A stretch of 64,000 nucleotides of DNA, taken from Gemmatimonadales bacterium (GTDB taxonomy: Bacteria; Gemmatimonadota; Gemmatimonadetes; Gemmatimonadales; GWC2-71-9). A program made the translations under genes and the position numbers. How positions within the stretch are numbered: position 1 is the first letter of the stretch; each line of letters starts with the position of its first letter. This document shows positions 2,424-60,325 of the stretch, in pieces. The stretch spans positions 696 through 64,695 of the forward strand of contig JBGSKF010000151.1 in the NCBI GenBank assembly GCA_041741375.1, written 5' to 3'. Below the pieces are notes generated by a model. It saw only the letters and a list, made by a program, of their open reading frames with translations, made no database searches and was not told where the DNA came from.

Positions 2424-3113
2424 ATGACGGATATCGCACAATTTGTTGACGCGGTCAAGCGGGGTGACCTCGGAAAGGTGGAGCTGCTTCTGGCCCGGGA
2501 GCGGGATCTGGTTCGCGCCACGGATGACCATGGTGTCTCCGTCATTCTCCTCGCCCTCTATCATCGGCATCCCGCCGTGGCGGAGGCACTGGTTTCCCGG
2601 CGCACCCGGCTCTCGATGCCCGAAGCGTGCGCCCTCGGCCGGCTCGATGAGGCCCGGTCCATCATCGCCGCGAACAAGGAGCATGCCCGGATGCCCGCGC
2701 CGGACGGACACACGCCGCTCGGCCTCGCCTCCTTTTTCGGACATGTCGAGATGGTGGCCCTCCTGCTGGACAACGGGGCGGACCCGACGATTCCGTCGGC
2801 GAATTCGATGCATGTGACTCCGCTGCACAGTGCGGTGGCCGTGGCCGAGCCCGATCACGCACTCGCGAATGTGCGCCAGCTGCTGGCGCACGGGGCGGAC
2901 CCCGACGCGAAGCAGCAGGGGGGGTGGACGGCGCTGCACGCGGCGGCGCAACGCGGGCTGCGGGACGTTGTGGCCGCTCTGCTGGAGGCCGGGGCGAGCC
3001 CCGCGCCGGTTTCCGATGACGGGATCACCCCCGCCATGCTGGCGCGGAAGGGGGGACTGGAGAGCCTGGCCGCCTCCCTGGAGAGCCGGAAAACAGTGAA
3101 CAGTGAACAATGA
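2424..3113 (+). CDS. ankyrin repeat protein
   Basis: Repeated GxTPLH/GWTALHAAA..G..L..GADP ankyrin motifs; start MTDIAQF after a GGGAG RBS. Confidence 0.9.
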   Translation: MTDIAQFVDAVKRGDLGKVELLLARERDLVRATDDHGVSVILLALYHRHPAVAEALVSRRTRLSMPEACALGRLDEARSIIAANKEHARMPAPDGHTPLGLASFFGHVEMVALLLDNGADPTIPSANSMHVTPLHSAVAVAEPDHALANVRQLLAHGADPDAKQQGGWTALHAAAQRGLRDVVAALLEAGASPAPVSDDGITPAMLARKGGLESLAASLESRKTVNSEQ

Positions 3114-3163
3114 ACGTGAACAATGAACAGTGAACAATGAACAATGAACAATGAACAGTGAAC
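3092..3163 (+). repeat. heptamer tandem array (AACARTG)n, about 10 copies, overlapping the ankyrin stop
   Basis: aacagtg aacagtg aacaatg aacgtg aacaatg aacagtg aacaatg... read directly. Confidence 0.95.
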
Positions 3164-3200
3164 GCGGGTCCAGAAGGAAGCTCATGCGGCAGTCATCCGG

Positions 3201-3223
3201 AGGGCGAATGTAATTCGCCCTAC
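3201..3223 (-). repeat. GTAG-type REP-like palindrome (GTAGGGCGAATTACATTCGCCCT)
   Basis: GTAG followed by a GGGCGAAT/ATTCGCCC stem; near-identical copy at 60159-60182. Confidence 0.75.
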
Positions 3224-3225
3224 GA

Positions 3226-3317
3226 TTCCCTATTCCCTGTTCCCTATTCCCTATTCCCTATTCCCTATTCCCTATTCCCTATTCCCTATTCCATATTCCT
3301 GACACCCTACTCCCTGC
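3226..3317 (-). repeat. heptamer array (TTCCCTA)n, i.e. (TAGGGAA)n downstream of arginase
   Basis: About 10 near-perfect TTCCCTA copies followed by CCCTACT CCCTGCT. Confidence 0.95.
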
Positions 3318-3318
3318 T

Positions 3319-4227
3319 TCAGAGGATCCGCAGGCCAAACGCGCTGGTCACCAGGCCGACGGCGAGCTCCGCCGTCCGGTTGTGGGCATCGAGCACCGGG
3401 TTGATCTCCACGATGTCCATCGACACCAGTTTCTGGGAATCGGCGATCAACTCCATCGCCAGGTGACCCTCACGGTACGTGGCTCCTCCGCGAACCGGGG
3501 TTCCGACGCCGGGCGCCTCCCCCGGGTCGATCCAGTCGGCATCGCAGGACACATGGATCCCTCCCGTGTCGCGACCGGCGATCGCGATGGCGTCGGTCAT
3601 CACCGCCTTGAGCCCCCGTTCGTCGATCTCGCGCATGGTGAAGGTGCGGGCGCCGAATTCCTGGATGTGCCTCCTCTCCGCGGGATCGAGATCGCGGACC
3701 CCGACCAGCGCCACATTCTCGGAGCGGACGGCCGGGTAGACCGAGGCGAGGCGGGCCATGCGCGGGTCTCCATGACCGAGCAGATGGGCCACGGGCATGC
3801 CGTGGATGTTGCCGCTCAGGGAGCTCTCCGGCGTGTTGAGGTCGCCGTGGGCATCGAGCCAGATGAGGCCGAGCCGCTGGTCCCGCTCGGCGAGGGCGGT
3901 GGCGACGCCGGCCACGGAGCCGGCGCCGATTGAGTGGTCCCCGCCGAGCACCAGGGGCGAGCACCCGTCGCGGATGGCGGCGGCGGTGGCCTCGGCGAGG
4001 AGCCGGCACGCCTCGACGATGACGGGAAGGAGGTCGAGGCCCTCGGGGCCCGCAGGAATGGCGTCGCGGTCGGGGATCGGGATGTTGCCGATGTCCTCGA
4101 CGTCGTGCCCGATCTGCCGGAGACAACGGCCGAGCTGAGCGATGCGGAGCGCGGAAGGCCCCATGTCGACGCCGCGGCGGCTGGCGCCGAGATCGAGGGG
4201 GACACCGATGAGTCGAATGCGGGTCAT
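3319..4227 (-). CDS. rocF: arginase
   Basis: MTRIRLIGVPLDLGASRRGVDMGP; GGDHS, DAHGD, SCDADWIDP and GTPVRGG Mn-binding ureohydrolase motifs. Confidence 0.93.
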   Translation of the reverse strand: MTRIRLIGVPLDLGASRRGVDMGPSALRIAQLGRCLRQIGHDVEDIGNIPIPDRDAIPAGPEGLDLLPVIVEACRLLAEATAAAIRDGCSPLVLGGDHSIGAGSVAGVATALAERDQRLGLIWLDAHGDLNTPESSLSGNIHGMPVAHLLGHGDPRMARLASVYPAVRSENVALVGVRDLDPAERRHIQEFGARTFTMREIDERGLKAVMTDAIAIAGRDTGGIHVSCDADWIDPGEAPGVGTPVRGGATYREGHLAMELIADSQKLVSMDIVEINPVLDAHNRTAELAVGLVTSAFGLRIL

Positions 4228-4239
4228 GGAGGCTCCGGG

Positions 4240-4284
4240 ACAATGGACAATGAGCAATGAACAATGAACAATGAACCATGAACC
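4240..4284. repeat. heptamer array (ACAATGA)n, about 6 copies, immediately upstream of the arginase start
   Basis: acaatgg acaatga gcaatga acaatga acaatga accatga. Confidence 0.93.
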
Positions 4285-4429
4285 GGGGAGAATGAATAGC
4301 CCGATCGGACTCCGGGGCTGCAGGGGGGAAGGGTCCGTGGGTCCCCGGCCCTCGCCTTGCCGTGCGGTCGATTCGGCGCCAATTTCCCTTGTCCGCGATC
4401 CGCCGCTTCCCCCACGGAGACATCTCCCG

Positions 4430-7030
4430 ATGACACGACTTCCCGGTGCCCGGCTCGGGCTCCTCCGCCGGCTTGGGCTCCTTGCGCTCCTGCTCGTGGC
4501 TCTCGCTCCCGCTCCCGCTCCCATCCTGGCGCAGGAGCCCGGCTCTGCCGCCCTGAAGCAGGCTCCGGAGGCCAACTGGAGGCTCGCGGCGCGCTTTGCA
4601 CCGTACAAGATCCGCAAACTCGTCTACAGCACCTCCGTGACCCCCCGTTGGATCGAGGGGAGCGAGCGCTTCTGGTACGAGTGGGAAACCTCCGCCGGGA
4701 AGCGGTTCATGCTGGTGGACCCGGTGGCGGGAACCAAGCGTCAGTTCATTGACAACGATCGCCTCGCCGCCGAAATCACCCGCATCACCAGGGATCCGTG
4801 GGACGGACAGCATCTCCCGATCCGGAAGATCAAGTTCCTCGACGCCAACACGCTCCAGTTCGAGGTGGAGTCCTCCCAGGACGAGGAACGCGCCGACGCC
4901 GATTCGGCGCGCGGACAGCAGCAGGACCAGCGTCAGGGCGCCGCGCGCCGACCCCGCCCGAAGAAGAAGGTGTTCCACTTCGAGTACGATGTGCAGACCG
5001 GCGCCCTGCGCGAGCTGACCGACCGCCAGGCCCCGGACAACCATCCGTCGTGGGCCAGTGTGTCGCCCGACGGGGCCACGATCATCTTTGCCCGGAAGCA
5101 CAACCTCTTCCTGATGGACAGCGCCGCCTACCGCCAGGTGCTCGAGGCGCGCCGCGGAAAGGAAGGCGCCGCCGCGGACAGCGCGGACTGGAAGGTGGAG
5201 GTGGCGGAGGTGCAGCTCACCACCGACGGCGAGGAACACTTCAGCTACGCGGGGCGGGACTTCGGGGAGAAGGACGAGGACCGGGACAAGAGCGCCGACC
5301 GGCGCAAGCGGACCGTCATCTCCTGGTCGAAGGACTCCCGGCGGTTTGCCCTGGTGCGGCAGGACCAGCGGAAGGTGGGGGATCTCTGGGTCATCCACTC
5401 GACCGGCAACACCCGCCCGCAGCTCGAGACCTACAAGTACGACATGCCGGGGGAGAAGGACGTCACCCAGTCCCACCTCCTGATCTACGACCTGACGCAG
5501 CGGGGCATGGTGACGGTGAAGGCCGAGGCCTTCAAGGACCAGCGGATCGGCATCTTCAACGCCCGGCAGTTCCTCTATCCCGACAGCGACGAGCCCCGCC
5601 GCCAGCTCTGGCTCTCCGACGACTCCAACGAGCTCCATTTCTGGCGCCGGAGCCGCGACCAGCACCGGGTCGACGTGGTCGTGGCCAACGCCGCCACCGG
5701 CGACGTGCGGGTGTTGATCGAGGAGCGGCTCAACACCTACGTGGAGCACCAGACCCCGGAACGCCTCGCCTCGGGTGATCTCCTCTGGTGGTCGGAACGG
5801 GACGGCTGGGCCCACCTCTACCGGTACGGGCCGGATGGCACCCTCAAGGCGCGGTTGACCGAGGGCCCCTGGCATGTGGGTGGGATCGAGGGAGTCGATG
5901 AGGCGCGTGGTCTCGTGTATCTGACGGCCAACGGACGGGAGAGGGGAGAGGATCCCTACTATCAGCACCTCTACCGGGTGGGGCTCGACGGGCGGGGCCT
6001 CACCCTCCTCAACAGCGGCGACTTCGACCACCGCTCCGATCTGGGCGCCAGCCGCCGTTTCGCTGTGAACAACTACTCCCGCGTGAACACCACTCCCGCG
6101 GCCGCGTTGGTGGATGTCACCACGGGGCGGAAGGTTCTTGACCTGGAGGAGGCCGACTTCTCCAAACTGATGGAATCGGGGTACCGTTTCCCCGAGCCGT
6201 ACACGGTGAAGGCCGCGGATGGCATCACCGATCTCTATGGCGTCATCTACAAGCCCTTCGACTTCGACTCGACACGGCGGTATCCGCTCATCGAGTACGT
6301 CTACCCCGGTCCCCAGACCGAGGCGGTGAGCAAGTCGTTCTCCACCAACGCGCCGGAAACGGGGCTCGCCCAGTTCGGCTTCATCGTCGTGACGATCGGG
6401 AATCGGGGCGGACACCCCGACCGCTCCAAGTGGTACCACAACCAGGGGTACGGCGACCTGCGGGACTACGGCCTCGCCGACAAGAAGGTGACGGTGGAGC
6501 AGCTCGCCGACCGGCACTCCTGGATCGACCCCGACCGGGTGGGGATCTATGGCCACTCCGGCGGGGGATTCATGTCCACCGCCGCGATGCTGGTCTACCC
6601 CGATCTCTTCAAGGTGGCGGTCTCCTCCTCGGGGAACCACGAGAACAACATCTACAATCAGAACTGGTCGGAAAAGCACCACGGAGTGAAGGAAGTGGCC
6701 CGGGGGGACAGCATCACCTTCGAGTACGCCATCGAGAAGAACTCGGAACTGGCCCGCAACCTGAAGGGTCACCTGATGCTGACCACGGGGGACATCGACA
6801 ACAACGTCCATCCCGGCGGAACCTTCCGCATGGCCGAGGCGTTGATCAAGGCGAACAAGCGCTTCGACTTCTTCATCTTCCCGGGCCAGCGGCACGGCTA
6901 TGGCAACATGAGCGACTACTGGTTCTGGCTCCGCTCGGAGTACTTCGTCCGCCACCTGCTCGGCGACACGCGGGGGAACGTGAACATCGCGGAACTCGAC
7001 CTGGAGCGGGATCCGCCCCGCGGGAACTGA
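4430..7030 (+). CDS. S9 family dipeptidyl-peptidase IV-like peptidase
   Basis: Signal peptide, DPP-IV beta-propeller, nucleophile motif GHSGGG, DNNVH and QRHGY catalytic Asp/His. Confidence 0.92.
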   Translation: MTRLPGARLGLLRRLGLLALLLVALAPAPAPILAQEPGSAALKQAPEANWRLAARFAPYKIRKLVYSTSVTPRWIEGSERFWYEWETSAGKRFMLVDPVAGTKRQFIDNDRLAAEITRITRDPWDGQHLPIRKIKFLDANTLQFEVESSQDEERADADSARGQQQDQRQGAARRPRPKKKVFHFEYDVQTGALRELTDRQAPDNHPSWASVSPDGATIIFARKHNLFLMDSAAYRQVLEARRGKEGAAADSADWKVEVAEVQLTTDGEEHFSYAGRDFGEKDEDRDKSADRRKRTVISWSKDSRRFALVRQDQRKVGDLWVIHSTGNTRPQLETYKYDMPGEKDVTQSHLLIYDLTQRGMVTVKAEAFKDQRIGIFNARQFLYPDSDEPRRQLWLSDDSNELHFWRRSRDQHRVDVVVANAATGDVRVLIEERLNTYVEHQTPERLASGDLLWWSERDGWAHLYRYGPDGTLKARLTEGPWHVGGIEGVDEARGLVYLTANGRERGEDPYYQHLYRVGLDGRGLTLLNSGDFDHRSDLGASRRFAVNNYSRVNTTPAAALVDVTTGRKVLDLEEADFSKLMESGYRFPEPYTVKAADGITDLYGVIYKPFDFDSTRRYPLIEYVYPGPQTEAVSKSFSTNAPETGLAQFGFIVVTIGNRGGHPDRSKWYHNQGYGDLRDYGLADKKVTVEQLADRHSWIDPDRVGIYGHSGGGFMSTAAMLVYPDLFKVAVSSSGNHENNIYNQNWSEKHHGVKEVARGDSITFEYAIEKNSELARNLKGHLMLTTGDIDNNVHPGGTFRMAEALIKANKRFDFFIFPGQRHGYGNMSDYWFWLRSEYFVRHLLGDTRGNVNIAELDLERDPPRGN

Positions 7031-9996: not shown

Positions 9997-11654
9997 GCGA
10001 ACGCTCCCGCCTGGTGGAGGTCCTCCAGGTCGTTGACGTCGAGCCAGTGCCCGCTGATATAACAGACCGCGGGCGGGGTGCCGGTGGCCGCGAGGTGTGT
10101 GAGGAGGAACGGGAGATCGAGCCGGGGGAAATCGGGGCGGGACTGAAGCTCCGTCAGAGCCCGCCGGAGGCGCTGCGTGCCCTCACTGCGCGAGCGGACC
10201 ATTCCGACCCACCGGCCATGGGCGGAGACGCCGTTGGATCCCGGGGTCGCGGAGACCCGGAGCAGGGAGACCCGTTGGTCGAAGATCCCTCGATCGTCCG
10301 CGGCGCTGCAGTGGGCCAGATCGCGGTCGAGGTGGCGGTCTCCCGGGCGCACGGAGGAATCGACGACGGTGACCACGTCTCCCTCGGTCTGGAAGAGACG
10401 ATCGAGGATGTAGCTCCGGAAGAGGATGTCGCCATAGAGCAGGAGCACGTCTCCCTCCATGATCTCCAAGGTGCGGGCCAGGGAGGCGAGTTCGCCCGTG
10501 GTGTCATGGTCGGGATTGAGGAGGACGGTGACGCCCGGAATGTCGATGGCCTCGGCGCGCCACCCCCCCACCACGGTGAGGTCGTGCATTCCCTGGCCCT
10601 TCAGGGTGTCCACCATCCGGCGAAGAAGCGGGACACCCGCCACGGGGAGCATCACCTTGGGGCGGTCCTCCGTCACCGCCTCCAGTCCCGCGCCGCGGGT
10701 GGCTCCCAGGATGATGGCCCGGGTGTGTCCGTGTCCGGTGTCCGCATACCGTCGCTCGGCCTCGAGCAACTCGTCGGCGCCTTGCAGCCGGAACACCTCG
10801 TCCACCGGGGCGATGCGGTCCTCCACCGTCACCAGTGTCTCCCGGGCGTGGATTTCCCGCGCGGTCTCCTGCATGGCCCGGATGGAGGAACGCAGCAGAT
10901 GGTTGGCCCAGATGACCACGTTGATGCCGGCCCGGCGGAACACGTCGGTGGGGGTGGAGTAGTACTTGGTGGGCACGATGACGAGGGGAGCGCGACCCGC
11001 CCATTTCCGGGCAAAGTCGAGGATCTCGTCGGGTCGCGAGCTCTTGCTGTGGATGAGGATCGCATCGGCGCCCGCCTGGCGGTAGGCCTCGGCCCGGCGC
11101 AGCGCCTCCGACAGGCCCCACCCGGCGATCAGGGCCTCCACGCGCGCCACCAGGCAGAAGTCCGCGGTGCACTGGCTGTCCTTTCCCGCCTTGATCTTGC
11201 CGCAGAACTCGTCCACATCGGCGAGCGGTTGTCGCTCCCCCCGGATGAAGCTGTTGGTCTTGGGGAACTGCTTGTCCTCGATACAGACACCGGCGATGCC
11301 GCGCTGTTCCAGCTTGCCCACGAGCCGCCGGAGGTTGTTGAAGTTTCCATACCCGGTGTCGCCATCGAGCAGGATGGGGATGGTGGTGGTGTCGGCCATG
11401 AATTCCAGGACATCCACCACCTGGGTCCAGCTCGCCTCGTTGCTGTCCCGCACACCGAGCTGGGCCGAGATCGAGAGCCCGCTGCCCCAGAGGCCGGCAA
11501 AGCCCGCCTCCTCGGCGATCCGGGCGCTGAGTCCGTTGTGGGCCTCCATCAGGAAGTCCAGATCGGGGGAGGTCAGCAGGCGGCGCAGAGCGGCCGCCTT
11601 GCCGGGGGCCTGGCACCGCGGGGCCACGGGAAGGCGAGGCAGGCTGCTGATCAT
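9993..11654 (-). CDS. pepM: phosphoenolpyruvate mutase fused to a C-terminal nucleotidyltransferase (PntC-like) domain
   Basis: Diagnostic EDKxxxxxNS motif ([11 protein letters not shown]) and DGDTG; C-terminal [25 protein letters not shown]-transferase domain. Confidence 0.96.
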
Positions 11655-22972: not shown

Positions 22973-24027
22973 GATTTCCGCTGCACATCACGCTCGACAC
23001 CGTGAACCACCAGGTGCGGAACGCGATCGCCGGCAACAAGCGATATCCGTTCGTCCTGATGCTGGAACCGCTCTACACCTGCAACCTGGCCTGCATCGGA
23101 TGCCTGCCCGAGCGCCACACCGGCAAGCTGGCGGACCGGCTTCCCCTGGAGGCGTGCCTCAAGGCGGTGGATGACTGCGGCGCGCCCTCCGTGTCGATCT
23201 GCGGTGGCGAACCGACCGTGTACCCCGAGCTCCCCGAGCTGGTGGCGGGGATCATCGCGCGGAAGCGGCACATCTACCTCTGCACCAACGCCCTGTTGCT
23301 CGACACCAAGGTGTTCGGCCGGATTCCGCCCCACAAGCGGTTGACCATCAACGTTCACCTCGACGGGATGCGAAAGACCCACGACTACGTGACCGCACGG
23401 GAGGGAGTGTTCGACAAGGCGATCGCGATGATCCGCGAGGCCAAGGCCCGCGGCTATCACGTGATCACCAACACCACGGTGTTCAAGGAGACCGACATCG
23501 ACGAGGTGGAGGAACTCTGTGAGTACATGACGCAACTCGGCGTGGACGGCATGCTGATCTCCCCGGGATATCACTACGAACACATCGAGCACGACATCTT
23601 CCTCACCCGGGAAGACATCGAGGAGAAATTCAAGCGCGTCCTCCGGTTCGCCGACCGGTTCCCCCTCATGTCCACCCCGCCGTTCCTGGAGTTTGCGGCG
23701 GGACTCCGCGAGTACCCGTGCTCGCCCTGGAGCACCGTGACCTTCACGCCGAAGGGGTGGAAGGGGCCCTGCTACCTGATCGGAAAGAAGTTCACCTTCG
23801 ACTGGAACGAGTTCTGGACCGGAACCGATTGGGCCTACTGGGAATCCCGGCAGGACCGCCTCTGCCAGAACTGCAAGATGCACTCGGGGTTCGAGGCCTC
23901 GGTGGTCCGGGAGCTGGCCCGCAATCCGGGTGACCTCATGCGCGTGATGAAGTGGAACTTTCTCGGCAACGGACGCCGCAAGGCACCGGAACGGGAGACG
24001 GTGGCCGTCGCGTCGAACGGACAGTAG
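22969..24027 (+). CDS. hpnH: adenosyl-hopene transferase (radical SAM)
   Basis: YPFVLMLEPLYTCNLACIGC (CxxxCxxC), GGEP and C-terminal CQNCKMHSGFE; ATGA overlap with shc. Confidence 0.93.
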   Translation: MRFPLHITLDTVNHQVRNAIAGNKRYPFVLMLEPLYTCNLACIGCLPERHTGKLADRLPLEACLKAVDDCGAPSVSICGGEPTVYPELPELVAGIIARKRHIYLCTNALLLDTKVFGRIPPHKRLTINVHLDGMRKTHDYVTAREGVFDKAIAMIREAKARGYHVITNTTVFKETDIDEVEELCEYMTQLGVDGMLISPGYHYEHIEHDIFLTREDIEEKFKRVLRFADRFPLMSTPPFLEFAAGLREYPCSPWSTVTFTPKGWKGPCYLIGKKFTFDWNEFWTGTDWAYWESRQDRLCQNCKMHSGFEASVVRELARNPGDLMRVMKWNFLGNGRRKAPERETVAVASNGQ

Positions 24028-26810: not shown

Positions 26811-27064
26811 CTTCCCATCCCAACACTCCTTGATTGGCCCAAGTGCGTCGCTCGTCGGTGGAGCTGCGGCCCTGCGGGCCTCGCTCTCCTCCGCGCCGTG
26901 GGCGCTCCGGATCGATTCCGACCGGCGCCTCTCTCCCGTCCGTCCCTCCATGTGGGGTCCCGGTGCGTCGCTCGTCGGTGGAGCCCGGGCCCTGCGGGCC
27001 TCGCTCTCCTCCGCGCCTGCCGGCGCTCCGGACCGATTCCGACCGGCGCCTCTCTCCCGTCCGT
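26811..27064 (+). repeat. tRNA-linked tandem repeat, two units of about 120 bp, each ending in a copy of the tRNA-Cys 3' end
   Basis: accggcgcct at 26801, 26921 and 27042; units beginning gtgcgtcgctcgtcggtggagc at 26843 and 26963 are near-identical. Confidence 0.9.
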
Positions 27065-27472
27065 TCGTCCCTGTGGGCCCTTGGGGGCGTGCCGCATGAG
27101 GGGGTAGGGAAAGTGCTCCCGTGACCGGCCCGGGATCGTTCGGGCCGGGTGCGGAACCACCAGTCAATTCGGCGACGATCCTTGATGGCGAAGAACCTTG
27201 AGCTGAACATCAATTCATTGACGCTCAATGACATATCTGAGGGGAAGGTGCCTTTCTCCGGGTGTGGTGTGTGGCTCCGGTTGGGTCGATCGTCTCCGTC
27301 CTTGGGCGGGGCACCGTGCCTCCGGCCACTCATCCTCACCCGTCTCCAGGTACAGCATCCACCCCATGCAGGGGCTGCTCCCCGGAACGCAGCCCGAATG
27401 CACGCAAATGGCTCTTGTGAAATCCCGGCTCTCGTGACATTGTCAAGAGACGCCGGTTTCCGGAGGTTCCCC

Positions 27473-29810: not shown

Positions 29811-29855
29811 CCCTACTCCCCACTCCCTACTCCCTACTCCCTACTCCCTACTCCC
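29811..29855 (-). repeat. heptamer array (CCCTACT)x6, supplies the stop codon of the second symporter
   Basis: Read directly; the minus-strand TAG at 29841-29843 lies inside the array. Confidence 0.95.
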
Positions 29856-34476: not shown

Positions 34477-34560
34477 AGGGAATAGCGAGAAGGAATAGGG
34501 AGTAGGGGAAGGCGAAACCCTATTCCCTGCATTCCCTACTCCCCATTCCCTGCTCCCTAC
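34477..34560. repeat. inverted pair of heptamer arrays (GGAATAG/GGAGTAG ... CCCTATT/CCCTACT) between divergent tkt and HNH genes
   Basis: gggaatag..ggaatagggagtagggg followed by ccctattccctg..ttccctactccccattccctgctccctac. Confidence 0.85.
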
Positions 34561-34676
34561 GTCCCCCACCCTGCCCCCAACCCCGAGGAGGGGCTATTTT
34601 GCTTCCGTCGGCTCCGGGGACGTCAACGGGACGCCCCGGTGTGCACGATCATGGACATTCAGGGTCGAGAGGTGCC

Positions 34677-38963: not shown

Positions 38964-39046
38964 GCTCCGATGTGGACTCGGGGCTGTTCGTCCTTCCCGC
39001 ATTCCTCCTTCAGAGTTCCCCGTCCATTCGAACTTCAAACTTCTTG

Positions 39047-47782: not shown

Positions 47783-47814
47783 GAAGTTTGAAGTTCGAAG
47801 TTTGAAGTTCGAAG
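47783..47814. repeat. heptamer array (GAAGTTY)x4.5
   Basis: gaagttt gaagttc gaagttt gaagttc gaag; same family at 39027-39043 (minus strand) and 60139-60157. Confidence 0.9.
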
Positions 47815-48213: not shown

Positions 48214-48254
48214 CCCTACTCCCTACTCCCTACTCCCTACTCCCTACTCCCTAC
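48214..48254 (-). repeat. heptamer array (CCCTACT)x6, supplies the rho stop codon
   Basis: Five perfect copies plus one partial; minus-strand TAG at 48251-48253. Confidence 0.95.
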
Positions 48255-49492
48255 CTGAGTCCCCGCGCCACCTCTTCCAGCAGGGCCGGTGTCGACTGCA
48301 TCACCGGCACGTGCGCAAGATCCTTGCGTAAGGTCGCCGCACGCTCCAACTCTTCGGGGGTGAGGAGGAGTTCCTCGCGCCGAGTCCCGCTGGCCGCCAG
48401 GTCGATCGCGGGGTAGATCCGGCGCTCCGCGAGCCCGCGATTGAGCACCACCTCGCTGTTGCCTGTCCCCTTGAACTCCTCGAAGATGACCTGGTCGAGC
48501 CGGGAACCGGTGTCGATCAGGGCGGTGGCGATGATCGTCAGCGAGCCGCCGCCGGTCTGCGGGTCCACTGCCCGGGCGCTTCCGAAGAACCGCTTCGGCG
48601 CCTCCATGGCCTCGGCGTCGAGACCGCCCGACAGGGTCCGGCCCGATCCCCGTTCCGTGGTGTTGTAGGCCCGGGCCAGCCGGGTGAGGGAGTCGAGCAC
48701 CAGCACCACGTTCCCCCCGCATTCGACCTCGCGCCGTGCCCGCTCCAAGGTCATTTCCGCCAGCAACGTGTGCTGCTCGGGGGGGGAATCGAAGCTCGAC
48801 GCGACGACCTCGCCCACGCCGACCGTCTCCATGTCGGTGACTTCCTCCGGGCGTTCGTCCACCAGGAGGATGAACAAACGGGTATCGGGATAGTTGGCCG
48901 CCACGCCGGAGGCGATCGACTGGAGGATGGTGGTCTTTCCCGCCTTGGCCGGCGCCACGATGAGGGTGCGCTGGCCCCAGCCCACCGGCGCAAAGAGATC
49001 GATGGCGCGATTGATCATCCGGAAGGGCTTGGGGAGCGACTCATGGTCCAGACGCATCCGTTCCCGCGGGGCCACGGCGCGAAGCTTGGTGAAGTCGGGG
49101 CGCCTCTCGATGGAGGAGGGGTCCCGCCCGTTCACGGTCAGCACCTCGGTCACGACCGTCCCCTGTCTCCCGCTCCCCCCCCCCCCATTGCCGCCACCGT
49201 TGGGACGACCCCGACCCTGTCTCCCCCGCCCGCGGTTCCTCCGTCCCCGACCCGCCCGGCCGTTGCCGTCCGCACCACCCGGTTCGGATGGGGAAGGCGG
49301 CCCCCCGATCCTCCCGGTCACTTCGTCGCCGGCCCGGAGTCCGAGGCGCCGAATCAAGGCACCCGGAATGACCGGGTCGGAGGGAGTCGGGAGATACCCC
49401 GCTTCCCGGGTCCGCAACACACCATCGCCACTATTTCCCCGCGACCCGAACGCCAGCCATCCCTGGACCGCATTGCCTTCTTGAGTGGTCAC
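48251..49492 (-). CDS. rho: transcription termination factor Rho, atypical (no N-terminal helical bundle, Gly/Arg-rich insert)
   Basis: [26 protein letters not shown]-loop [16 protein letters not shown] and SGTRREELL; GTG start after AAAGGA. Confidence 0.9.
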
Positions 49493-49574
49493 CGACAGAC
49501 TTCCTTTCTCCGTTGTTTCACGATGGGGCGCGCAGTGCGCCCGGTTCCCATCCCGTACCGTGGAGGATGTTTTG

Positions 49575-51140
49575 ATGCGCTCTCTGGTTCCGCTCTGTGC
49601 CCTCGTGGTCGGCCTCTTACCCGTCCCCGCCGTGGCCCAGACTCTCCCGGTCGAGAGTCCGGTCCTGCGCCGGATCTGGGAGGTGGGAATGCAATCCTCC
49701 CAGGTCGACCCCCTGATCCAGACCCTCACCGATTCGATCGGTCCCCGGCTCACCGGCACGCCGGGGATGGAACGCGGCCAGGCCTGGCTCCAGGCCATGT
49801 ACCGCCAGTGGGGCATCCCCGCCCGGGCCGAGCAGTATGGCACCTGGCTGGGCTGGCGGCGCGGCACGACCCATGTGGACCTGATCGCTCCCCGGGTCCG
49901 CTCCCTGGAGGGCATGATGCTCGCCTGGAGCGCCGGCACCGGGGGCCGTCCGGTTCAGGGGGCGGTGGTGCTCCTCCCTGATCTTCCCGACTCGGCGGCC
50001 TACGCCGCGTGGCTCCCGACGGTTCGCGGCAAGTTCGTGGCCCTCAGTGCTCCCGAGCCCACCTGCCGCCCCGAGGGAAATCTCCGGGAGTTCGGGCGAC
50101 CGGAAACGGTGACGGCTCTCCTCGACCAGCGGACCCGCATCCGGAACGACTGGACCGGCCGCGCCACCCGCACCGGATTCAACGCACGCACCCTCCCGGT
50201 TCACCTGGAAACCGCCGGCGCGGCGGGGGTGATCACGTCGCTCTGGTCCGGAGGATGGGGTACCACGCGCATCTTCCAGGCCCGGACCACCCGGGTTCCC
50301 ACCGTGGAGCTCAGTTGTGAGGACTACGGCCTGGTGACGCGACTCGCCGAGCGGGGCCAGTCCCCCACGATCCGGGTCACCGCCGATGCCGAGTTTCTGG
50401 GGGACGTCCCCGTCTACAACGTCATCGGGGAGATCCGCGGTTCCGAGCGTCCCGACGAGTATGTCATGCTCTCGGCCCACTTCGATTCGTGGGATGGCTC
50501 CAGTGGCGCCACGGACAACGGAACCGGCACGGTGACGATGCTCGAAGCGATGCGGATCCTCCGAGAGGTCTACCCAGCGCCCCGACGGACCATTCTGGTC
50601 GGGCACTGGAGTGGAGAAGAGCAGGGGCTCAACGGCTCACGAGCCTTCGCCGAGGACCACCCCGAGGTGGTGCGCGGACTCCAGGCGCTCTTCAATCAGG
50701 ACAACGGGACCGGACGGGTCGTCAACATGTCTGCGTCCGGTTTTGCCGGCGCCGCGCCCCGGATCGCCGGGTGGGTCAGCCGACTGCCCACAGAACTCTC
50801 GCAGCAGATCAATCTGTCCCTGCCCGGCGGGCCTGCGGGAGGGGGATCGGACCACGCGGCGTTCGTCTGCCACGGTGCCCCTGGGTTTTCGCTCGGTGCG
50901 CTGGGCTGGGACTATGGAACTTACACCTGGCACACCAATCGCGACACCTACGACAAGGTGATCCTGGATGAATTGAAATCGAATGCCACTCTGACCGCAA
51001 TGCTTGTCTACATGGCGAGCGAGGAGCCGGGGGAGACCTCCCGGGTCCAGCGCGTGGTGCCACCCACCCGTTCGGGGGCCCCCGGGACATGGCCCGCCTG
51101 CCAGAAGCCGGCGCGGTCCTTCGCCGAATCCACCCGCTGA
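49575..51140 (+). CDS. M28 family metallopeptidase (carboxypeptidase Q-like)
   Basis: Signal peptide; DSIGPRLTG, SAHFDSW, GATDNGTG, GEEQGL, GSDH and WHT..DT.DK. Confidence 0.9.
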   Translation: MRSLVPLCALVVGLLPVPAVAQTLPVESPVLRRIWEVGMQSSQVDPLIQTLTDSIGPRLTGTPGMERGQAWLQAMYRQWGIPARAEQYGTWLGWRRGTTHVDLIAPRVRSLEGMMLAWSAGTGGRPVQGAVVLLPDLPDSAAYAAWLPTVRGKFVALSAPEPTCRPEGNLREFGRPETVTALLDQRTRIRNDWTGRATRTGFNARTLPVHLETAGAAGVITSLWSGGWGTTRIFQARTTRVPTVELSCEDYGLVTRLAERGQSPTIRVTADAEFLGDVPVYNVIGEIRGSERPDEYVMLSAHFDSWDGSSGATDNGTGTVTMLEAMRILREVYPAPRRTILVGHWSGEEQGLNGSRAFAEDHPEVVRGLQALFNQDNGTGRVVNMSASGFAGAAPRIAGWVSRLPTELSQQINLSLPGGPAGGGSDHAAFVCHGAPGFSLGALGWDYGTYTWHTNRDTYDKVILDELKSNATLTAMLVYMASEEPGETSRVQRVVPPTRSGAPGTWPACQKPARSFAESTR

Positions 51141-51145: not shown

Positions 51146-51190
51146 GGAGCAGGGAGCAGGGAGGAGGGAGTAGGGAATAGGGAGTAGGGG
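51146..51190 (+). repeat. heptamer array (GGAGNAG)x6 after the M28 stop
   Basis: ggagcag ggagcag ggaggag ggagtag ggaatag ggagtag. Confidence 0.9.
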
Positions 51191-52739: not shown

Positions 52740-52774
52740 TTCCCTACTCCCTATCGCCTACTCCCTATCGCCTA
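52740..52774 (+). repeat. heptamer array (YTCCCTA/TCGCCTA)x5 before the ABC ATPase RBS
   Basis: ttcccta ctcccta tcgccta ctcccta tcgccta. Confidence 0.9.
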
Positions 52775-52788
52775 CCTTGGAGCTCCCC

Positions 52789-53499: not shown

Positions 53500-53519
53500 A
53501 CGCCCCCGGGAGGTCAATC

Positions 53520-53597
53520 GTCATCCCCGCGCACGCGGGGATCCATTTCCATGAGGGCGTGGGGAGGAGAATGGATTCCCGCTTACGCGGGAATGAC
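53520..53597. repeat. paired REP/dRS3-like palindromes
   Basis: GTCATCCCCGCGCACGCGGGGATCCA ... TGGATTCCCGCTTACGCGGGAATGAC. Confidence 0.88.
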
Positions 53598-53652
53598 GGA
53601 CGTTGCTGATCTCGTCAAGTGATCAGAGTTTCCCTGAAACGCGGAGGACACC

Positions 53653-56144: not shown

Positions 56145-56807
56145 ATGATCCGCCTGATCAACATCGAAAAGTCCTATCCCACCGGACCCTCCCGGACCTG
56201 GGTGCTCCGGCAGGTCTCGATCGAGATCGCCGCGGGGGAGTTCGTCACCATCATGGGTCCCTCGGGTGCCGGCAAGTCCACCCTGCTCGGCATCCTCGGG
56301 ATGCTCGACGCCGAGTGGAGCGGGGAGTACCACCTGGACGACCACCCCGTCCACGCGATGAAGCAGCGTCAGCGGGCCGAACTGAACAAGGCGATGATCG
56401 GATTCGTCTTCCAGCAATACCACCTCCTCGACAGCCTCACCGTCTACGAAAACCTCGAGACTCCCCTCTCCTACCGCAATTACAGCCGGGCCGAGCGCCA
56501 GTCCCGCGTGGCGGACGTGCTCGACCGCTTCCGGATCGTCGGAAAGAAGGACCTCTTTCCCTCGCAGCTCTCCGGCGGGCAGCAACAGCTCGTGGGGGTG
56601 GCCCGGGCCGTCATGGCCGAGCCCAAGATCATCCTGGCCGACGAACCGACCGGAAACCTGCACTCCACCCAGGCCCGGGAGATCATGGAACTCTTCCGGG
56701 AACTGAACCAGGGCGGCACCACGATCGTGCAGGTAACCCACAGCGAGGAAAACGCCCGGTACGGCACCCGGGTGATCCAATTGAAGGATGGATGGGTGGT
56801 GGCGTAG
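56145..56807 (+). CDS. ABC transporter ATP-binding protein (second)
   Basis: GPSGAGKST, LSGGQQQ and ADEPTGNLH. Confidence 0.93.
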   Translation: MIRLINIEKSYPTGPSRTWVLRQVSIEIAAGEFVTIMGPSGAGKSTLLGILGMLDAEWSGEYHLDDHPVHAMKQRQRAELNKAMIGFVFQQYHLLDSLTVYENLETPLSYRNYSRAERQSRVADVLDRFRIVGKKDLFPSQLSGGQQQLVGVARAVMAEPKIILADEPTGNLHSTQAREIMELFRELNQGGTTIVQVTHSEENARYGTRVIQLKDGWVVA

Positions 56808-56875
56808 GCGGTAGGCGATAGGCGGTGGGCGGTAGGGGAACGTAGGCGGTAGGTGACGGGTGGGAGGCACAGGGG
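56805..56875 (+). repeat. left arm (TAGGCGG)n of an inverted repeat flanking the four-helix-bundle gene
   Basis: taggcgg taggcga taggcgg tgggcgg ... taggcgg; the first TAG is the ATPase stop. Confidence 0.92.
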
Positions 56876-56946
56876 CTGCGACAAGAGGATGGTGGTCGCG
56901 CGATTGTGGTCCTTCCACGAAGGGCCGGTGGTGATAGCATTCCCTG

Positions 56947-57339
56947 ATGGGGAATCAGGCGACGTCCTTCCGGGACCTGTTGGTGTGGCAGCGTGCCATG
57001 GATGCATCGGTGGAGGTGCTCCGGCTCGCCCGGATCCTCCCACGGGAGCTCCGGGATAGTCTCGGGGACCAGATGCGCCGGGCGGCGATCTCGGTCGTGA
57101 GCAATATTGCCGAGGGGCACGGCAGGCGGCACCGGAAGGAGTATATTCATCATGTTGCCATTGCCAGCGGCTCGCTGAAGGAAATGGAAACTCAGTTGCT
57201 GTTGCTGCGGAGACATGACTCGCGATTCGCGGAGGATGTCGATCGGATTCTGGCCATCACTGACGAAACGGGCAGGATGCTGACAGGACTGTATCGGGCG
57301 CTCAAAAGTCCACGATCAACTCCCGACACCCGTGGATGA
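56947..57339 (+). CDS. four helix bundle protein (23S rRNA IVS protein / Avd-like, TIGR02436 family)
   Basis: FRDLLVWQRAM, DQMRRAAISVVSNIAEG and IASGSLKEMETQL family motifs. Confidence 0.92.
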   Translation: MGNQATSFRDLLVWQRAMDASVEVLRLARILPRELRDSLGDQMRRAAISVVSNIAEGHGRRHRKEYIHHVAIASGSLKEMETQLLLLRRHDSRFAEDVDRILAITDETGRMLTGLYRALKSPRSTPDTRG

Positions 57340-57360
57340 TCAGGCTATCCTGTGGTTGAC

Positions 57361-57443
57361 CCCCGTCGCCTCTCGCGTCCTCTATGGCCCACCGCCTACC
57401 ACCTTCTCTATCGCCGACCGCCTACCGCCAACCGCCTATTCCT
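57361..57443 (+). repeat. right arm (CCGCCTA)n of the inverted repeat, ending at the regulator ATG
   Basis: ccgccta..tcgccga ccgccta ccgccaa ccgccta ttcct-ATG. Confidence 0.9.
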
Positions 57444-58802
57444 ATGCTCCCCACGATCTTGATTGCTGAGGATCAGCCCGACGTCCTCGAGGCCCTCCGG
57501 CTCCTCCTCAAGTCGGAAGGGTATCGAACCGTCACGGCGCATGTGCCCGAGGGGGTCCTGGCCCTCCTCGAACGGGAGCAGGTGGACGCGGCCCTGATCG
57601 ATCTCAACTACACCCGGGACACCACCTCGGGCCGGGAGGGGCTCGATCTTCTGTCGCGGATTCAGGCCGCCGATGCGACTCTTCCCGTCATCGTCATGAC
57701 CGCGTGGGGCAGCGTGGACAAGGCGGTGCAGGCCATGCAACTCGGCGCCCGCGACTTCGTCGAGAAGCCGTGGGACAACGCCCGTCTCCTCGCCACCGTG
57801 CGCACCCAGGTCGAACTCTCCCGCGCCCTCCGGCTCGGCCAGCGCCTGGCCTCCGAGAACCGGATGCTGCGGCAGGAGGGCCTTCCCGATCTGGTCGCCG
57901 AGTCGGGCGCCATGCGTCCGGTGGTGGAGATCATGAAGCAGGTGGCGCCGAGTGACGCCAATGTGCTCATCACCGGGGAGCATGGGACCGGGAAGGAGGT
58001 GGTGGCCCGCTGGCTCCACGCCACGAGCGGCCGCGCCGAGAAACCCCTGGTGATAGTGAACGCCGGAGGACTCTCCGAGGGGGTGTTCGAGAGTGAACTC
58101 TTCGGGCATGTGAAGGGCGCCTTCACCGACGCCAAGACCGACCGGATCGGCCGCTTCGAAATGGCCGATGGGGGAACCCTCTTCCTCGACGAAATCGCGA
58201 ATATTGGCCTGGCGCAGCAGGCTCGGCTCCTCCGGGTGCTCCAGGAGGGGGAGCTGGAGCGGGTCGGCTCGTCCCGGACCCGTCATGTGGACGTGCGCGT
58301 GATCGCGGCGACCAACGCCGATCTCCCTGCCGAGGTGGCATCGGGCCGGTTCCGGGAAGATCTCCTCTTCCGGCTGAACACGATCGAGATCGCGCTCCCT
58401 CCGCTTCGGGCTCGCGGAGCCGATCTCCTGCCCCTGGCCGAGGGGTTCCTGGCACGGTTTCGCCGGAAGTATGGCAAGGCCCTCACCGGGTTTGCCGACG
58501 ATGCGGTGGCGGCCCTTCGACGCCACCCTTGGCCCGGCAACGTGCGCGAACTCGAGCATGCGGTGGAACGGGGAGTGCTGATGGCGCGGGGGACGACGAT
58601 GACCGCACCCGACCTCGCCCTACCCGGGACGTCCGCGGCGGAGGTGCCGTCCCCCTCCGGCGGACGGACCCTGGAGGAGACCGAGCGCGAAGTGATCCGC
58701 GCGGCCCTCACCCGGCATGACGGAAACGTGAGTTCCGCCGCCGCCGAGCTCGGCCTGAGCCGGAGTGCGCTCTACCGGCGTTTGCAGCGTCTCGGCCTGT
58801 GA
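57444..58802 (+). CDS. sigma54-dependent response regulator (NtrC family)
   Basis: REC domain, GEHGTGKE, ESELFGH, GAFTDA, LFLDEI, WPGNVREL and Fis-type HTH. Confidence 0.95.
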   Translation: MLPTILIAEDQPDVLEALRLLLKSEGYRTVTAHVPEGVLALLEREQVDAALIDLNYTRDTTSGREGLDLLSRIQAADATLPVIVMTAWGSVDKAVQAMQLGARDFVEKPWDNARLLATVRTQVELSRALRLGQRLASENRMLRQEGLPDLVAESGAMRPVVEIMKQVAPSDANVLITGEHGTGKEVVARWLHATSGRAEKPLVIVNAGGLSEGVFESELFGHVKGAFTDAKTDRIGRFEMADGGTLFLDEIANIGLAQQARLLRVLQEGELERVGSSRTRHVDVRVIAATNADLPAEVASGRFREDLLFRLNTIEIALPPLRARGADLLPLAEGFLARFRRKYGKALTGFADDAVAALRRHPWPGNVRELEHAVERGVLMARGTTMTAPDLALPGTSAAEVPSPSGGRTLEETEREVIRAALTRHDGNVSSAAAELGLSRSALYRRLQRLGL

Positions 58803-58809
58803 CCCTTCC

Positions 58810-60147
58810 GTGACCGCCCGCTTCGATCGGCGACTGCTCGGGCTCGTCCTGCTGGCGGGGGCGCCGGCTCTCGTGACCGTGACCATTCTGCTGTGGGTCG
58901 CGTCGTACAGCACCCTCCTCACGTTCACCGTCCTCCTCTTTCTGGCGCTGGGGTGGCTCTGGGTTGCCTTTGCCGCTCGGCGTCTCGTGGTACGGCCTCT
59001 CCGCACCATCGGCAACCTTCTCGCCGGGCTCCGGGAGGGGCACTTCACCCTCCGGGCCCGTGGGACCACCGACGGGGATCCCCTCTCCGATGTTTTCCGC
59101 GAAGTCAATGCTCTCGGTGGCATGCTGCAGGAGCAGCGGCTCGGCGCCGTCGAGGCCGACGCCCTGTTGCGGCGAGTGATGGAGGAGATCGACGTCGCCG
59201 TCTTCGCCTTTGCCGGGGACCACACGCTGCAACTCGCCAATCGGGCCGGTGAACAGCTCCTCGGCCAGCCGGTGGAGCGTCTGCTCGGGCGGACGGCGGA
59301 GTACCTCGGCCTCGATGGCTGCCTGAGGGGAAACACCCCCCGCATGATGGAGCAGACGTTCCTGGGGGGGATCGGTCGCTGGGAAGTCCGGAGGCGGAGC
59401 TTCCGTCAGGGAGGGCTTCCGATGGAGATGGTCGTGCTGGCCGATGTGAGCCGCGTGGTGCGGGAGGAGGAACGGCAAGCCTGGCGCCGGTTGATCCGGG
59501 TGCTGAGTCACGAGATCAACAACTCCCTGGCACCGATCAAGTCGCTGGCCGGCACCCTGGCTGCGTTGCTGGAGCGCTCCCCTCGTCCCGACGATTGCGA
59601 AGAGGATCTGGCCCGGGGGCTCGAGGTCATCGCGGCGCGCGCCGAATCGCTCGATCGGTTCATGGCGGCGTATGCCCGGCTCGCCAAATTGCCGGCGCCG
59701 GTTTTGGGAGACGTGGAGGTGGAGACGTGGGTGCGGCGCGTGGCCGCCCTGGAGGCCCGGATTCCTGTGAGGGTGGAACCGGGCCCGCCTCTCACCATTC
59801 GCGCCGATGGGGATCAGCTCGACCAGGTGCTCATCAACCTGGTCAAGAACGCTGCCGACGCCGCCCTCGAAACCGGCGGCGAGGTGACGATCGGATGGAG
59901 CGGGGACGGGGACGGGGACGTCGCGGAGCTGGAGGTCTGGGTCCGGGACTCAGGCCCCGGCATCGCGTCTCCCACCAACATCTTCGTCCCGTTCTTTACC
60001 ACGAAGCGGAACGGATCGGGGATCGGGTTGACCCTGAGCCGACAGGTGGCCGAGGCGCACGGAGGAACGTTGACGCTGCAGAACCGTCCCGCCGAGGAGG
60101 GGTCGGGCTGCATCGCGAACCTTCGGTTGCCCACGAACGAAGTTTGA
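58810..60147 (+). CDS. sensor histidine kinase
   Basis: Two TM segments, SHEINNSL, NLVKNA, DSGPG and FFTTK..GSGIGL. Confidence 0.92.
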   Translation: MTARFDRRLLGLVLLAGAPALVTVTILLWVASYSTLLTFTVLLFLALGWLWVAFAARRLVVRPLRTIGNLLAGLREGHFTLRARGTTDGDPLSDVFREVNALGGMLQEQRLGAVEADALLRRVMEEIDVAVFAFAGDHTLQLANRAGEQLLGQPVERLLGRTAEYLGLDGCLRGNTPRMMEQTFLGGIGRWEVRRRSFRQGGLPMEMVVLADVSRVVREEERQAWRRLIRVLSHEINNSLAPIKSLAGTLAALLERSPRPDDCEEDLARGLEVIAARAESLDRFMAAYARLAKLPAPVLGDVEVETWVRRVAALEARIPVRVEPGPPLTIRADGDQLDQVLINLVKNAADAALETGGEVTIGWSGDGDGDVAELEVWVRDSGPGIASPTNIFVPFFTTKRNGSGIGLTLSRQVAEAHGGTLTLQNRPAEEGSGCIANLRLPTNEV

Positions 60148-60325
60148 AGTGTGAAGTCGTAGGGGCGAATTGCATTCGCCCTGCTCAAACGCCAAGGCGC
60201 CAGGACGCAGTGACGCGAGGTGTATGGAGGCCACGAAAGGCTCCCAGTCGTGGATTCCCGCGTGCGCGGGAATGACGGGCATTACTCCCCACTCCCCATT
60301 CCCCACTCCCTACTCCCTTTCCCTG
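60139..60325. repeat. composite intergenic repeat mosaic: GAAGTKT heptamers, GTAG-REP, ACGCNAGG-like octamers, dRS3-like palindrome, CTCCCMA heptamers
   Basis: Units at 60139-60157, 60159-60182, 60189-60220, 60251-60276 and 60285-60325 respectively. Confidence 0.85.

Follow-up and report, generated by a model that had tools for sequence, protein, structure and literature searches.

That bacterial genomes contain 7-base repeats in excess has been remarked on for decades, with no agreement on the cause, and the heptamers of cyanobacteria, known as short tandemly repeated repetitive (STRR) sequences, were reportedly first described by Mazel et al. in 1990. Here we examine the heptamer arrays of a Gemmatimonadales bacterium, beginning with a 64,000-nucleotide stretch of assembly GCA_041741375.1 (contig JBGSKF010000151.1, positions 696 to 64,695; this whole stretch is called the window below), for which an initial annotation had proposed a polarity rule: the purine-rich strand of an array follows or contains the stop of a gene, and the pyrimidine-rich strand precedes a start. 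The observed orientation is confirmed, and the polarity is real. We find that the purine-rich strand (mostly the one with more G than C) runs 5' to 3' from the adjacent gene into the spacer, and that this orientation is set relative to the edge of the spacer, independently of the direction or kind of the neighboring gene, of the unit sequence, and of complementarity between paired arrays.

The closest described system, and the only detailed study of orientation, is that of Rehm et al. (2015; PMC4692102), who dealt with G-rich heptameric simple sequence repeats (SSRs), GGGAATC in Xanthomonas and GGGGAYT in Nostoc/Anabaena PCC 7120, and used a G-quadruplex reading. [quoted passage not shown] Downstream of genes the repeats occupy the coding strand within 50 bp of the stop, which is often overlapped, and ahead of starts they occupy the non-coding strand. 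The same report describes 70–75 convergent inverted pairs per genome, under-representation between divergent genes, copy numbers that vary at conserved sites, no preference for the leading or lagging strand, and no function that its authors could find. Our arrays share with these heptamers the period of 7, an intergenic excess, gene-proximal polarity, convergent inverted pairs, and variable copy number. The polarity rule is thus not new: presented by the initial annotation as its own observation, it had already been stated for the Xanthomonas and Anabaena heptamers (PMC4692102), and what this genome adds, without any claim to priority, is breadth, in the form of unrelated units, units without G-runs or stop codons, pairs with unrelated arms, and tRNA gene flanks. 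Whereas Rehm et al. describe one unit family per genome, read as G-quadruplex repeats and with a preference for four units, we find 98 unit types in four groups, half without G-runs, in a different phylum, with unrelated arms in more than half of the pairs and with polarity at tRNA genes. Scored by the presence of GGG or CCC in the unit, only part of our population belongs to the G-run class described by these authors.

Two further repeat classes bear comparison. MacGregor (2015; PMC4679880) reports TAACTGA heptamers in Beggiatoaceae as intergenic direct repeats that carry three-frame stops on one strand, differ between strains by indels in 7-nt steps, and in some cases overlap upstream stop codons; immediately ahead of start codons, these repeats are described as having mostly the stop-bearing orientation, the opposite of what start-side arrays show here. 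Di Nocera et al. (2013; PMC3733652) describe GTAG repetitive extragenic palindromes (REPs) as forming inverted dimers of one handedness, with the GTAG termini outside, that lie less than 20 bp from ORF 3' ends, favor convergent and co-directional spacers, and often supply the stop through their TAG. Dimer handedness and location at gene ends are alike in our arrays, and many of our units contain (G)TAG. GTAG-REPs, as that report describes them, are single stem-loops of fixed sequence tied to REP-associated tyrosine transposases, whereas our arrays consist of many different sequences repeated in tandem and are singly non-palindromic; no single array forms a stem-loop of the GTAG-REP kind, and separate GTAG-tagged hairpins exist beside arrays. 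The resemblance to STRR heptamers suggested in the initial annotation is one of tandem intergenic arrangement, and the host here is a high-GC non-cyanobacterium.

The window is typical of the genome, which comprises 3.86 Mb in 250 contigs at about 68% GC. When Tandem Repeats Finder (TRF) clusters were assigned to the smallest period with at least three copies, the whole genome yielded 723 clusters of period 7, well above those of period 6 (160), 8 (102), 9 (93), or 5 (34), so the expected excess of period 7 over its neighbors is present. Merging the TRF rows of period 7 with at least three copies gave 724 arrays of 98 unit types, with a median of 5.3 copies (~37 nt) and no more than 27.9 in any array; the units found most often are TAGGGAG (148), TAGGACA (61), GGGTGTT (46), TAGGCGG (44), and TAGGGAA (37), followed by AACAATG (36), GAAGTTT (34), GAAGTGT (30), and GAAGTTC (28). 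In the window, which holds 15 heptamer array arms, TRF recovered period-7 repeats of at least three copies at nearly all of the sites noted previously (3092, 3225, 4240, 29811, 34533, 47783, 48214, 51146, 52741/52750, 56804, 57408, and 60284) and at 10725, an intragenic array missing from the earlier list. These 13 loci compare with a mean of 0.48 period-7 arrays, and at most two, in 50 windows simulated under a first-order Markov model, confirming that the arrays are real and enriched. The array placed at 39027 after glpD consists of only two GAAGTTY units (39030–39043) directly following the stop and is unlisted by TRF. The division into four sequence families also needs some adjustment: AACARTG and GAAGTTY are separate, and TAGGGAR and TAGGCGR fall in one single-substitution network, so that the number of independent families is closer to three.

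To place arrays relative to genes across the genome, we used our own crude ORF caller (codon log-odds, greedy non-overlap; 3111 genes, 82% coding), in which stops are exact by construction and starts approximate. By this caller, the arrays are mostly intergenic, with 212 in convergent, 290 in co-directional, and 94 in divergent spacers, 96 at contig ends, and only 32 of 724 within called genes; the contig-end and intragenic arrays are left out of the neighbor tests below.

Taken literally, with either neighbor and either clause allowed, the proposed rule is unable to fail for a single array, because any intergenic array meets one clause for one of its neighbors in any gene arrangement. We therefore stated it in two testable forms: (a) the strand that leaves the nearest gene 5' to 3' is the purine-rich one, and (b) two arrays in a spacer are ordered purine-top then pyrimidine-top, the mirror order being equally possible a priori. 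The order in form (b) reads alike on both strands, and its handedness is nevertheless informative. Form (a) was fitted by 471 of the 596 intergenic arrays (79%), and by 301 of 376 when neighbors were restricted to genes of score above 60, so that orientation is not random genome-wide. The fit was equally strong at stops (329/410, 80%) and at starts (142/186, 76%), and arrays within 30 bp of tRNA genes fitted in 8 of 8 cases, at 5' and 3' tRNA ends alike. A framing by stops and starts therefore does not hold up, and the strong polarity that the initial annotation did detect is the geometry of spacer edges as seen from the flanking genes. Lone arrays (n=210) make the same point, since purine-top arrays abut the left gene (82:22) and pyrimidine-top arrays the right (79:27; Fisher odds ratio 10.9, p 3.5e-15), and the nearer gene is a median of 7 bp away, the farther one ~180 bp. 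For stops that face the 5' side of the purine strand (384 arrays), the distance to the array has a median of 2 bp, and 47% of these arrays contain the stop codon; the corresponding medians are 81 bp for starts facing that side (212 arrays) and 168 bp for stops facing the 3' side (330 arrays).

Because the purine-rich strand leaves the adjacent gene, a spacer with two arrays should read purine-array then pyrimidine-array on either strand, and this is what form (b) reveals. Adjacent arrays less than 300 bp apart were ordered purine>pyrimidine in 140 cases and pyrimidine>purine in 8, with 27 and 23 same-sense pairs. Beyond 700 bp the reverse order prevails, as would be expected where the right arm of one spacer precedes the left arm of the next. 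Within single spacers (pairs less than 700 bp apart), the ratio of purine>pyrimidine to reverse order was 58:5 in convergent, 65:4 in co-directional, and 21:1 in divergent spacers, and inverted pairs of the same unit showed one handedness in 80 of 84 cases (for example, among units free of stop codons, ATTGGGT 5:0 and GAAGTTC 3:0). Among intergenic arrays of other periods, the same polarity was absent genome-wide at periods 6 (15:19), 9 (26:17), and 12 (5:12); the 71 intergenic arrays of period 8 were polar likewise (54:16) and may be derivatives of heptamers.

Several simple causes were considered and set aside. Background composition does not account for the orientation, as array-free spacers have no purine skew after stops and merely 0.54–0.56 antisense upstream of starts, nor does replication direction as judged from local GC skew, with which array orientation is not associated (odds ratio 1.2, p 0.28); purine-top and pyrimidine-top arrays total 367 and 357. 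A single evolving unit family was also rejected. A loose network had joined all units, because chimeric junction 7-mers inflated the links, and a strict one, in which a unit needs two perfect copies in at least two arrays and links are single substitutions, splits into four separate groups: a G-rich group (TAGGGAG, TAGGCGG, GGGTGTT, and others), TAGGACA, AACAATG, and GAAGTTY. Polarity holds in each (85%, 74%, 71%, and 79%, respectively). A strong polarity common to sequence-unrelated heptamer families means that symmetric slippage alone is insufficient, as the initial annotation had suggested. Units of 312 of the 596 scored arrays contain no GGG or CCC (for example, AACAATG, GAAGTTY, TAGGACA, and TAGGCGG), and 240 of these 312 fit, compared with 231 of the 284 with GGG. 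Polarity in the absence of G-runs and, as described below, of stop codons speaks against the G-quadruplex and stop-codon readings.

The stop-codon reading belongs to a broader account based on translation signals, in which the purine strand bears three-frame stops and start-like and ribosome-binding-like motifs, and the pyrimidine strand is inert; selection would then tolerate or use the purine strand after a gene end and act against it, as harmful, in the sense direction before a start. In keeping with this, stops occur only on the strand leaving the nearest gene in 340 arrays and only on the entering strand in 70, and the frequent inclusion of the stop codon in stop-facing arrays at a median of 2 bp also counts in favor of such selection. 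Stop-less units are also somewhat less polar than the population overall (68% vs 79%), and the stop-codon point has been made in the reports on TAACTGA repeats (PMC4679880) and GTAG REPs (PMC3733652). Yet units that lack stops on both strands remain polar (113/165), starts are nearly as polar as stops, divergent spacers free of stops hold to the 21:1 pair order, and the polarity extends to tRNA genes, where codons are irrelevant. In one cluster of four tRNA genes (Arg, Pro, Arg, Val; C50:1700-2420), arrays are found ahead of the first gene and in two of the three spacers inside the cluster, with a purine>pyrimidine pair filling the tRNA-Pro/tRNA-Arg spacer and a zero-loop palindromic pair beside tRNA-Arg. 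We consider it quite unlikely that translation-signal selection sets the orientation.

The pairs themselves raise a different possibility, that the polarity comes from hairpin cassettes with a built-in handedness, each an element, inserted or duplicative, that would run from a purine-rich 5' arm through a center to a pyrimidine-rich 3' arm, akin to head-to-head GTAG-REP dimers, to REPINs (inverted REP doublets), or to rRNA intervening sequences with a four-helix-bundle gene; lone arrays and unrelated arms would then be decayed forms in which one arm was lost or remodelled. Complementary arms are indeed 2.5 times commoner than chance, with 77 of the 165 purine>pyrimidine pairs sharing the same unit within one mismatch as against 31.3 +/- 4.5 expected (1000 shuffles, maximum 44), and the single handedness of same-unit inverted pairs, the pairing of arms in predicted folds, and the presence in the genome of five Y1-transposase (PF01797) matches and of GTAG-type REP hairpins all fit such an origin, as does the report that elsewhere in bacteria GTAG-outside REP dimers predominate and abut ORF 3' ends (PMC3733652). 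Also in its favor is the location of the four PF05635 matches in the genome, all of which lie between a purine-top and a pyrimidine-top array with complementary units, the unit being different each time. PF05635 four-helix-bundle ORFs are known from intervening sequences in 23S rRNA, where complementary arms form a stem. The cassette in the window is alike in that its PF05635 gene is enclosed by complementary pairing arms (56801–57438), the two TAGGCGG arms forming the outer stem in the predicted fold of 56795–57445, and is unlike these intervening sequences in that it occupies not a 23S rRNA helix but the spacer that separates an ABC ATPase stop from a sigma-54 regulator start, its arms are tandem heptamers, and the unit differs from copy to copy.

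The excess of complementary arms and the enclosure of all four PF05635 genes thus indicate that a cassette-forming process exists and is a possible source of the polarity, which has to be counted against the DNA-level explanation that we favor below. Other findings speak against such an origin. The PF05635 cassettes make up 4 of 165 purine>pyrimidine pairs, 88 of these pairs have unrelated arms, and arm copy numbers within the 165 pairs are uncorrelated (rho 0.02). Pair centers are diverse and without a shared core, their common k-mers belonging to REPIN-like repeats dispersed genome-wide, and a search of the rest of the spacer for a hidden inverted partner of the 146 rule-fitting lone arrays found none (1.07 hits per 100 nt for the inverted unit vs 1.42 for the direct unit). 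The 98 unit types in four unconnected groups speak against a sequence-specific transposase, and arrays at orthologous sites change in place. On balance, we regard a cassette origin of the polarity as unlikely, if the strongest of the alternatives. Four-helix-bundle genes, whose number the initial annotation suggested correlating with that of arrays, cannot set the number of arrays, the 4 PF05635 genes and 724 arrays being two orders of magnitude apart. Across 31 related genomes PF05635 matches range from 0 to 13, and the four genomes with both figures, 4, 7, 2, and 4 genes against ~38, 42, 17, and 12 arrays per 200 kb, are too few points for a correlation test.

Comparison with samples of related genomes, namely 233 kb from G002 (same genus), 200 kb from each of the same-order genomes G019 and G020, and 45 kb and 12 kb from G010 and G018, shows how quickly these arrays change. 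G002 is 90–95% identical to the window over 34559–60132, and its arrays occupy the same sites but differ in copy number. Its sampled sequence holds 49 arrays, 27 of them with both flanks in the genome studied here (G000). Without 3 that were too distant for scoring and 6 that did not reach our threshold in G000, 18 shared sites remain; 17 of these have retained the polarity, 8 of the 17 with a changed unit, so that polarity outlasts the turnover of units at a site. All 16 of the arrays that could be aligned base by base between these ~93% identical genomes differ in length or unit. The six sites with an apparently absent array, considered as empty sites, proved to be mostly threshold effects or complex loci, and the G002/G000 comparison yielded no empty/filled site pair with clean borders for a heptamer cassette, a further point against an insertional origin. 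In G019 there are 17 arrays per 200 kb, built of other units and paired in the order 5:0, and G020 has 12 per 200 kb, without an excess of period 7. Farther afield, exact arrays of four TAGGGAG units occur in at least 120 stretches in other species; among the 80 loci listed, 62 are from filamentous cyanobacteria by record title, bearing out the STRR resemblance, and the rest include Planctomycetota, Gemmatimonadales, Chloroflexota, and Acidobacteriota. Close pairs among these 80 loci are ordered purine>pyrimidine over reverse at 46:10 in cyanobacteria and 7:0 in other phyla, counts that are not independent because several loci share a genome.

This turnover also bears on whether the arrays act at the RNA level, as directional insulators or terminators under selection. 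Under such a model, a gene would be left by purine-rich RNA and preceded by C-rich, G-poor RNA, possibly a Rho loading site, and complementary pairs would give RNase III or terminator-like stems. Arrays do concentrate where transcription should end: 41% of convergent spacers (136/333) have at least one, compared with 9% of co-directional spacers (197/2189; 20% when only those of at least 40 bp are counted) and 18% of divergent ones (61/340). Their density per kb is likewise greatest in convergent spacers, at 1.9, and drops to 0.94 in co-directional and 0.67 in divergent spacers. That preference, however, is equally expected of any tolerated non-coding insert and of something acting at transcript ends. 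Selected regulatory elements sit uneasily with arrays that are hypervariable between close relatives and few in G020. The median array, at ~37 nt, is short for a Rho loading site. For the G-rich heptamers, Rehm et al. report that transcripts start or stop at repeats capable of forming G-quadruplexes more often than at control repeats, and also that a regulatory role was not found (PMC4692102). Weighing these points, we think it improbable that RNA-level function orients the arrays, even more so than selection on translation signals.

We interpret the arrays of the window as ordinary members of a fast-changing, non-coding population of ~724 heptamer SSRs of the STRR or “heptameric SSR” class. 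Their orientation, we infer, is set at the DNA level through strand-asymmetric turnover combined with purifying selection at gene borders, a reading to which we assign a probability of about 0.5. In outline, turnover by slippage or template switching would treat the purine and pyrimidine strands differently, for instance by making deletions into the 5' flank of the purine strand. Synthesis that copies the purine-rich strand would always travel toward that flank; stalling and realignment there could delete flanking DNA, and arrays would creep until they lay against selected sequence. Purifying selection would leave only those arrays whose unstable side is backed onto a gene. Where a spacer holds two arrays, only the purine>pyrimidine order would be stable, because in the mirror arrangement both arrays would erode each other. 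Complementary arms would be a frequent secondary product, forming long stems in the transcript, with four pairs enclosing four-helix-bundle genes as in rRNA intervening sequences.

Beyond the evidence for cassettes, several observations weigh against this DNA-level explanation or soften the data behind it. If growth were polar, one end of an array should be the more conserved; this was rejected, as among the 16 orthologous arrays conservation favored the purine-5' end in 5 cases and the opposite, 3' end in 6, so array change shows no end bias, and the purine-5' half is barely more uniform than the other (0.70 vs 0.86 mismatches per unit, in 153 vs 104 arrays). The rule fits 79% of arrays and not all, same-unit pairs of GGGTGTT are mixed (2:3), and the call of a purine-rich strand is weak for units with 4 of 7 purines. 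Gene borders come from a crude caller with imprecise starts, and the tRNA flanks amount to only 8 cases.

In the window, nearest-gene polarity judged against Pfam-checked genes fits in all 14 scorable arms, with one array (52741) a tie (Table 1). Pfam upholds the names given to the genes for ankyrin, arginase, two SDF symporters, transketolase, HNH, GlpD-like DAO, hybrid kinase, Rho, M28, two ABC ATPases, sigma-54 regulator, kinase, and TonB plug. It also corrects two others: the gene whose stop precedes the array at 52741 (gene end 52739) encodes an HlyD-type protein, and the small gene between the arrays at 56801 and 57408 is the PF05635 gene. In their convergent spacer, the arrays at 3092 and 3225 make up a purine>pyrimidine pair whose two arms are unrelated. 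The arginase gene lies on the minus strand, hence its sense strand across the upstream array reads CATTGTT. Arms in the transketolase/HNH spacer fold together in prediction at -42.6 kcal/mol on the plus strand and -54.7 on the minus strand (z -4.6 and -4.1). The HlyD/ATPase spacer is occupied in G002 by another unit family (CCCAACA/CCTAGGA) with polarity unchanged, and the stop codon TAG is there changed to TGA.

Table 1. Heptamer arrays and PF05635 cassettes (for arrays, strand is that carrying the purine-rich unit; positions are those of the window unless a contig is given)
Feature	Position	Strand	Remarks
AACARTG array, 10.4 copies	3092..3163	+	TRF; contains ankyrin stop (gene end 3113)
TAGGGAA array (ATTCCCT on +), 10.7 copies	3225..3299	-	TRF; 19 bp past arginase stop
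AACAATG array, 6.3 copies	4240..4283	+	TRF; 12 bp upstream of arginase start
TAGGGAG array (CCCTACT on +), 6.4 copies	29811..29855	-	TRF; contains symporter 2 stop, 11 bp from symporter 1 stop
Purine-rich left arm, GGAATAG/GGAGTAG units	34479..34512	+	hairpin pair in divergent transketolase/HNH spacer; TRF period 13
Pyrimidine-top right arm, CCCTAYT units	34518..34578	-	partner of 34479 arm in transketolase/HNH spacer
Two-unit GAAGTTY remnant	39030..39046	-	directly after glpD stop; 4.4 copies at site in G002
GAAGTTY array, 4.6 copies	47783..47814	+	TRF; 76 bp upstream of hybrid-kinase start; 2.6 copies in G002
TAGGGAG array, 5.9 perfect copies	48214..48254	-	TRF; contains rho stop
GGAGYAG/TAGGGAG array, 6.3 copies	51146..51189	+	TRF; 5 bp past M28 stop; two units more in G002
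Mixed TAGGGAG/TAGGCGA array	52741..52775	-	occupies 37-bp HlyD-stop/ABC-ATPase-start spacer; neighbors tie
TAGGCGG array	56801..56853	+	contains ABC ATPase 2 stop; left arm of four-helix-bundle cassette; ~18 units in G002
PF05635 gene (23S rRNA intervening-sequence protein, four-helix bundle)	56947..57339	+	E 3.2e-30; between TAGGCGG arms
TAGGCGG array (CTACCGC on +), 4.4 copies	57408..57438	-	5 bp ahead of sigma-54 regulator start; right cassette arm
GAAGTKT array, 2.7 copies	60139..60157	+	contains kinase stop
GGGGAGT/TAGGGAG array (ACTCCCC on +), 4.9 copies	60284..60317	-	10 bp past stop of TonB-receptor reading frame
PF05635 cassettes of the genome	C241:6446-7041, C40:138-635, C140:3976-4291, window 56801-57438		a different unit in each: TAGGCGG in the window, and AGGACAT/ACAGAGG, TGAACAA, and GAGTGAG among the others

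Several side observations concern genes and one other repeat. The longest ORF of a DPP-IV/S9 peptidase (4271–7030) would begin at an ATG within the AACAATG array upstream of arginase, and the ORF caller prefers a start at 4430. The Rho reading frame (48251–49939) encodes 562 aa, with the RNA-binding domain from residue 170 and a long N-terminal extension, and was truncated by the ORF caller. At 26843–27077, a 121-bp unit unrelated to the heptamers occurs in two tandem copies with a 91% match (TRF score 400). Among the PF05635 genes, the C140 copy carries an internal TGA, and the G002 orthologue of the gene in the window (G002:C18, ~23549–23758) matches only profile positions 37–106, with a 1-base length difference, judged by eye, that may be a frameshift or an assembly error.

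Small hairpins of other kinds are also present. Two inverted GC-rich hairpin copies (53519–53544 and 53573–53599) form a REPIN-like doublet in the ABC-ATPase/MacB spacer (53519–53599), and this doublet is missing at the orthologous site of G002, where the spacer is 23 bp long and not 134 bp; words related to it occur 57–209 times genome-wide. Small hairpins tagged with GTAG/CTAC, with a GGGCGAAT..ATTCGCCC core, directly adjoin arrays at 3199–3224 and 60158–60184. The pattern has 67 matches genome-wide with double counting, or roughly 35–45 sites, and arrays up to 40 bp to the left of these hairpins are purine-top in a ratio of 12:0, with those on the right pyrimidine-top in a ratio of 8:4.

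The arrays also leave their mark on the assembly. Beyond the 96 of 724 arrays at contig ends in our genome, contigs from 4 public DNA runs break at arrays as well, the listed joints connecting arrays of the same unit, and the division of the assembly into 250 contigs is probably due in large part to the repeats. Public runs in which the stretch occurs carry hot-spring and biofilm metagenome labels; the 20 runs listed, all of them in contig form, include a single RNA run, which contains only 0.09 of the sampled words.

In practical terms, then, heptamer arrays supply stop codons to a share of genes (47% of the 384 stop-facing arrays contain one) and break assemblies. Their wider interest lies in the natural experiment that this genome provides, with 724 arrays of 98 unit types in four unconnected groups, which moves the question from regulation by G-quadruplex repeats to the strand-asymmetric process or constraint that orients any heptamer array at a gene border. 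Arrays of this kind across phyla, among them Gemmatimonadota-like bacteria, cyanobacteria, Xanthomonas, and Planctomycetota, could even be products of one strand-polar DNA process that involves no G-quadruplex, codon, or hairpin, an extension that we put forward only tentatively and think rather doubtful. Such a process would always lay the purine strand 5' to 3' from the flank toward the center of the spacer. One candidate is the directional repeat turnover proposed above, which would erode the flank on the purine-5' side; a bolder one is synthesis of repeats onto 3' ends at a break, in which case a two-array spacer would resemble two tracts fused head to head. If true, either candidate would bear on why the period of these repeats is 7.

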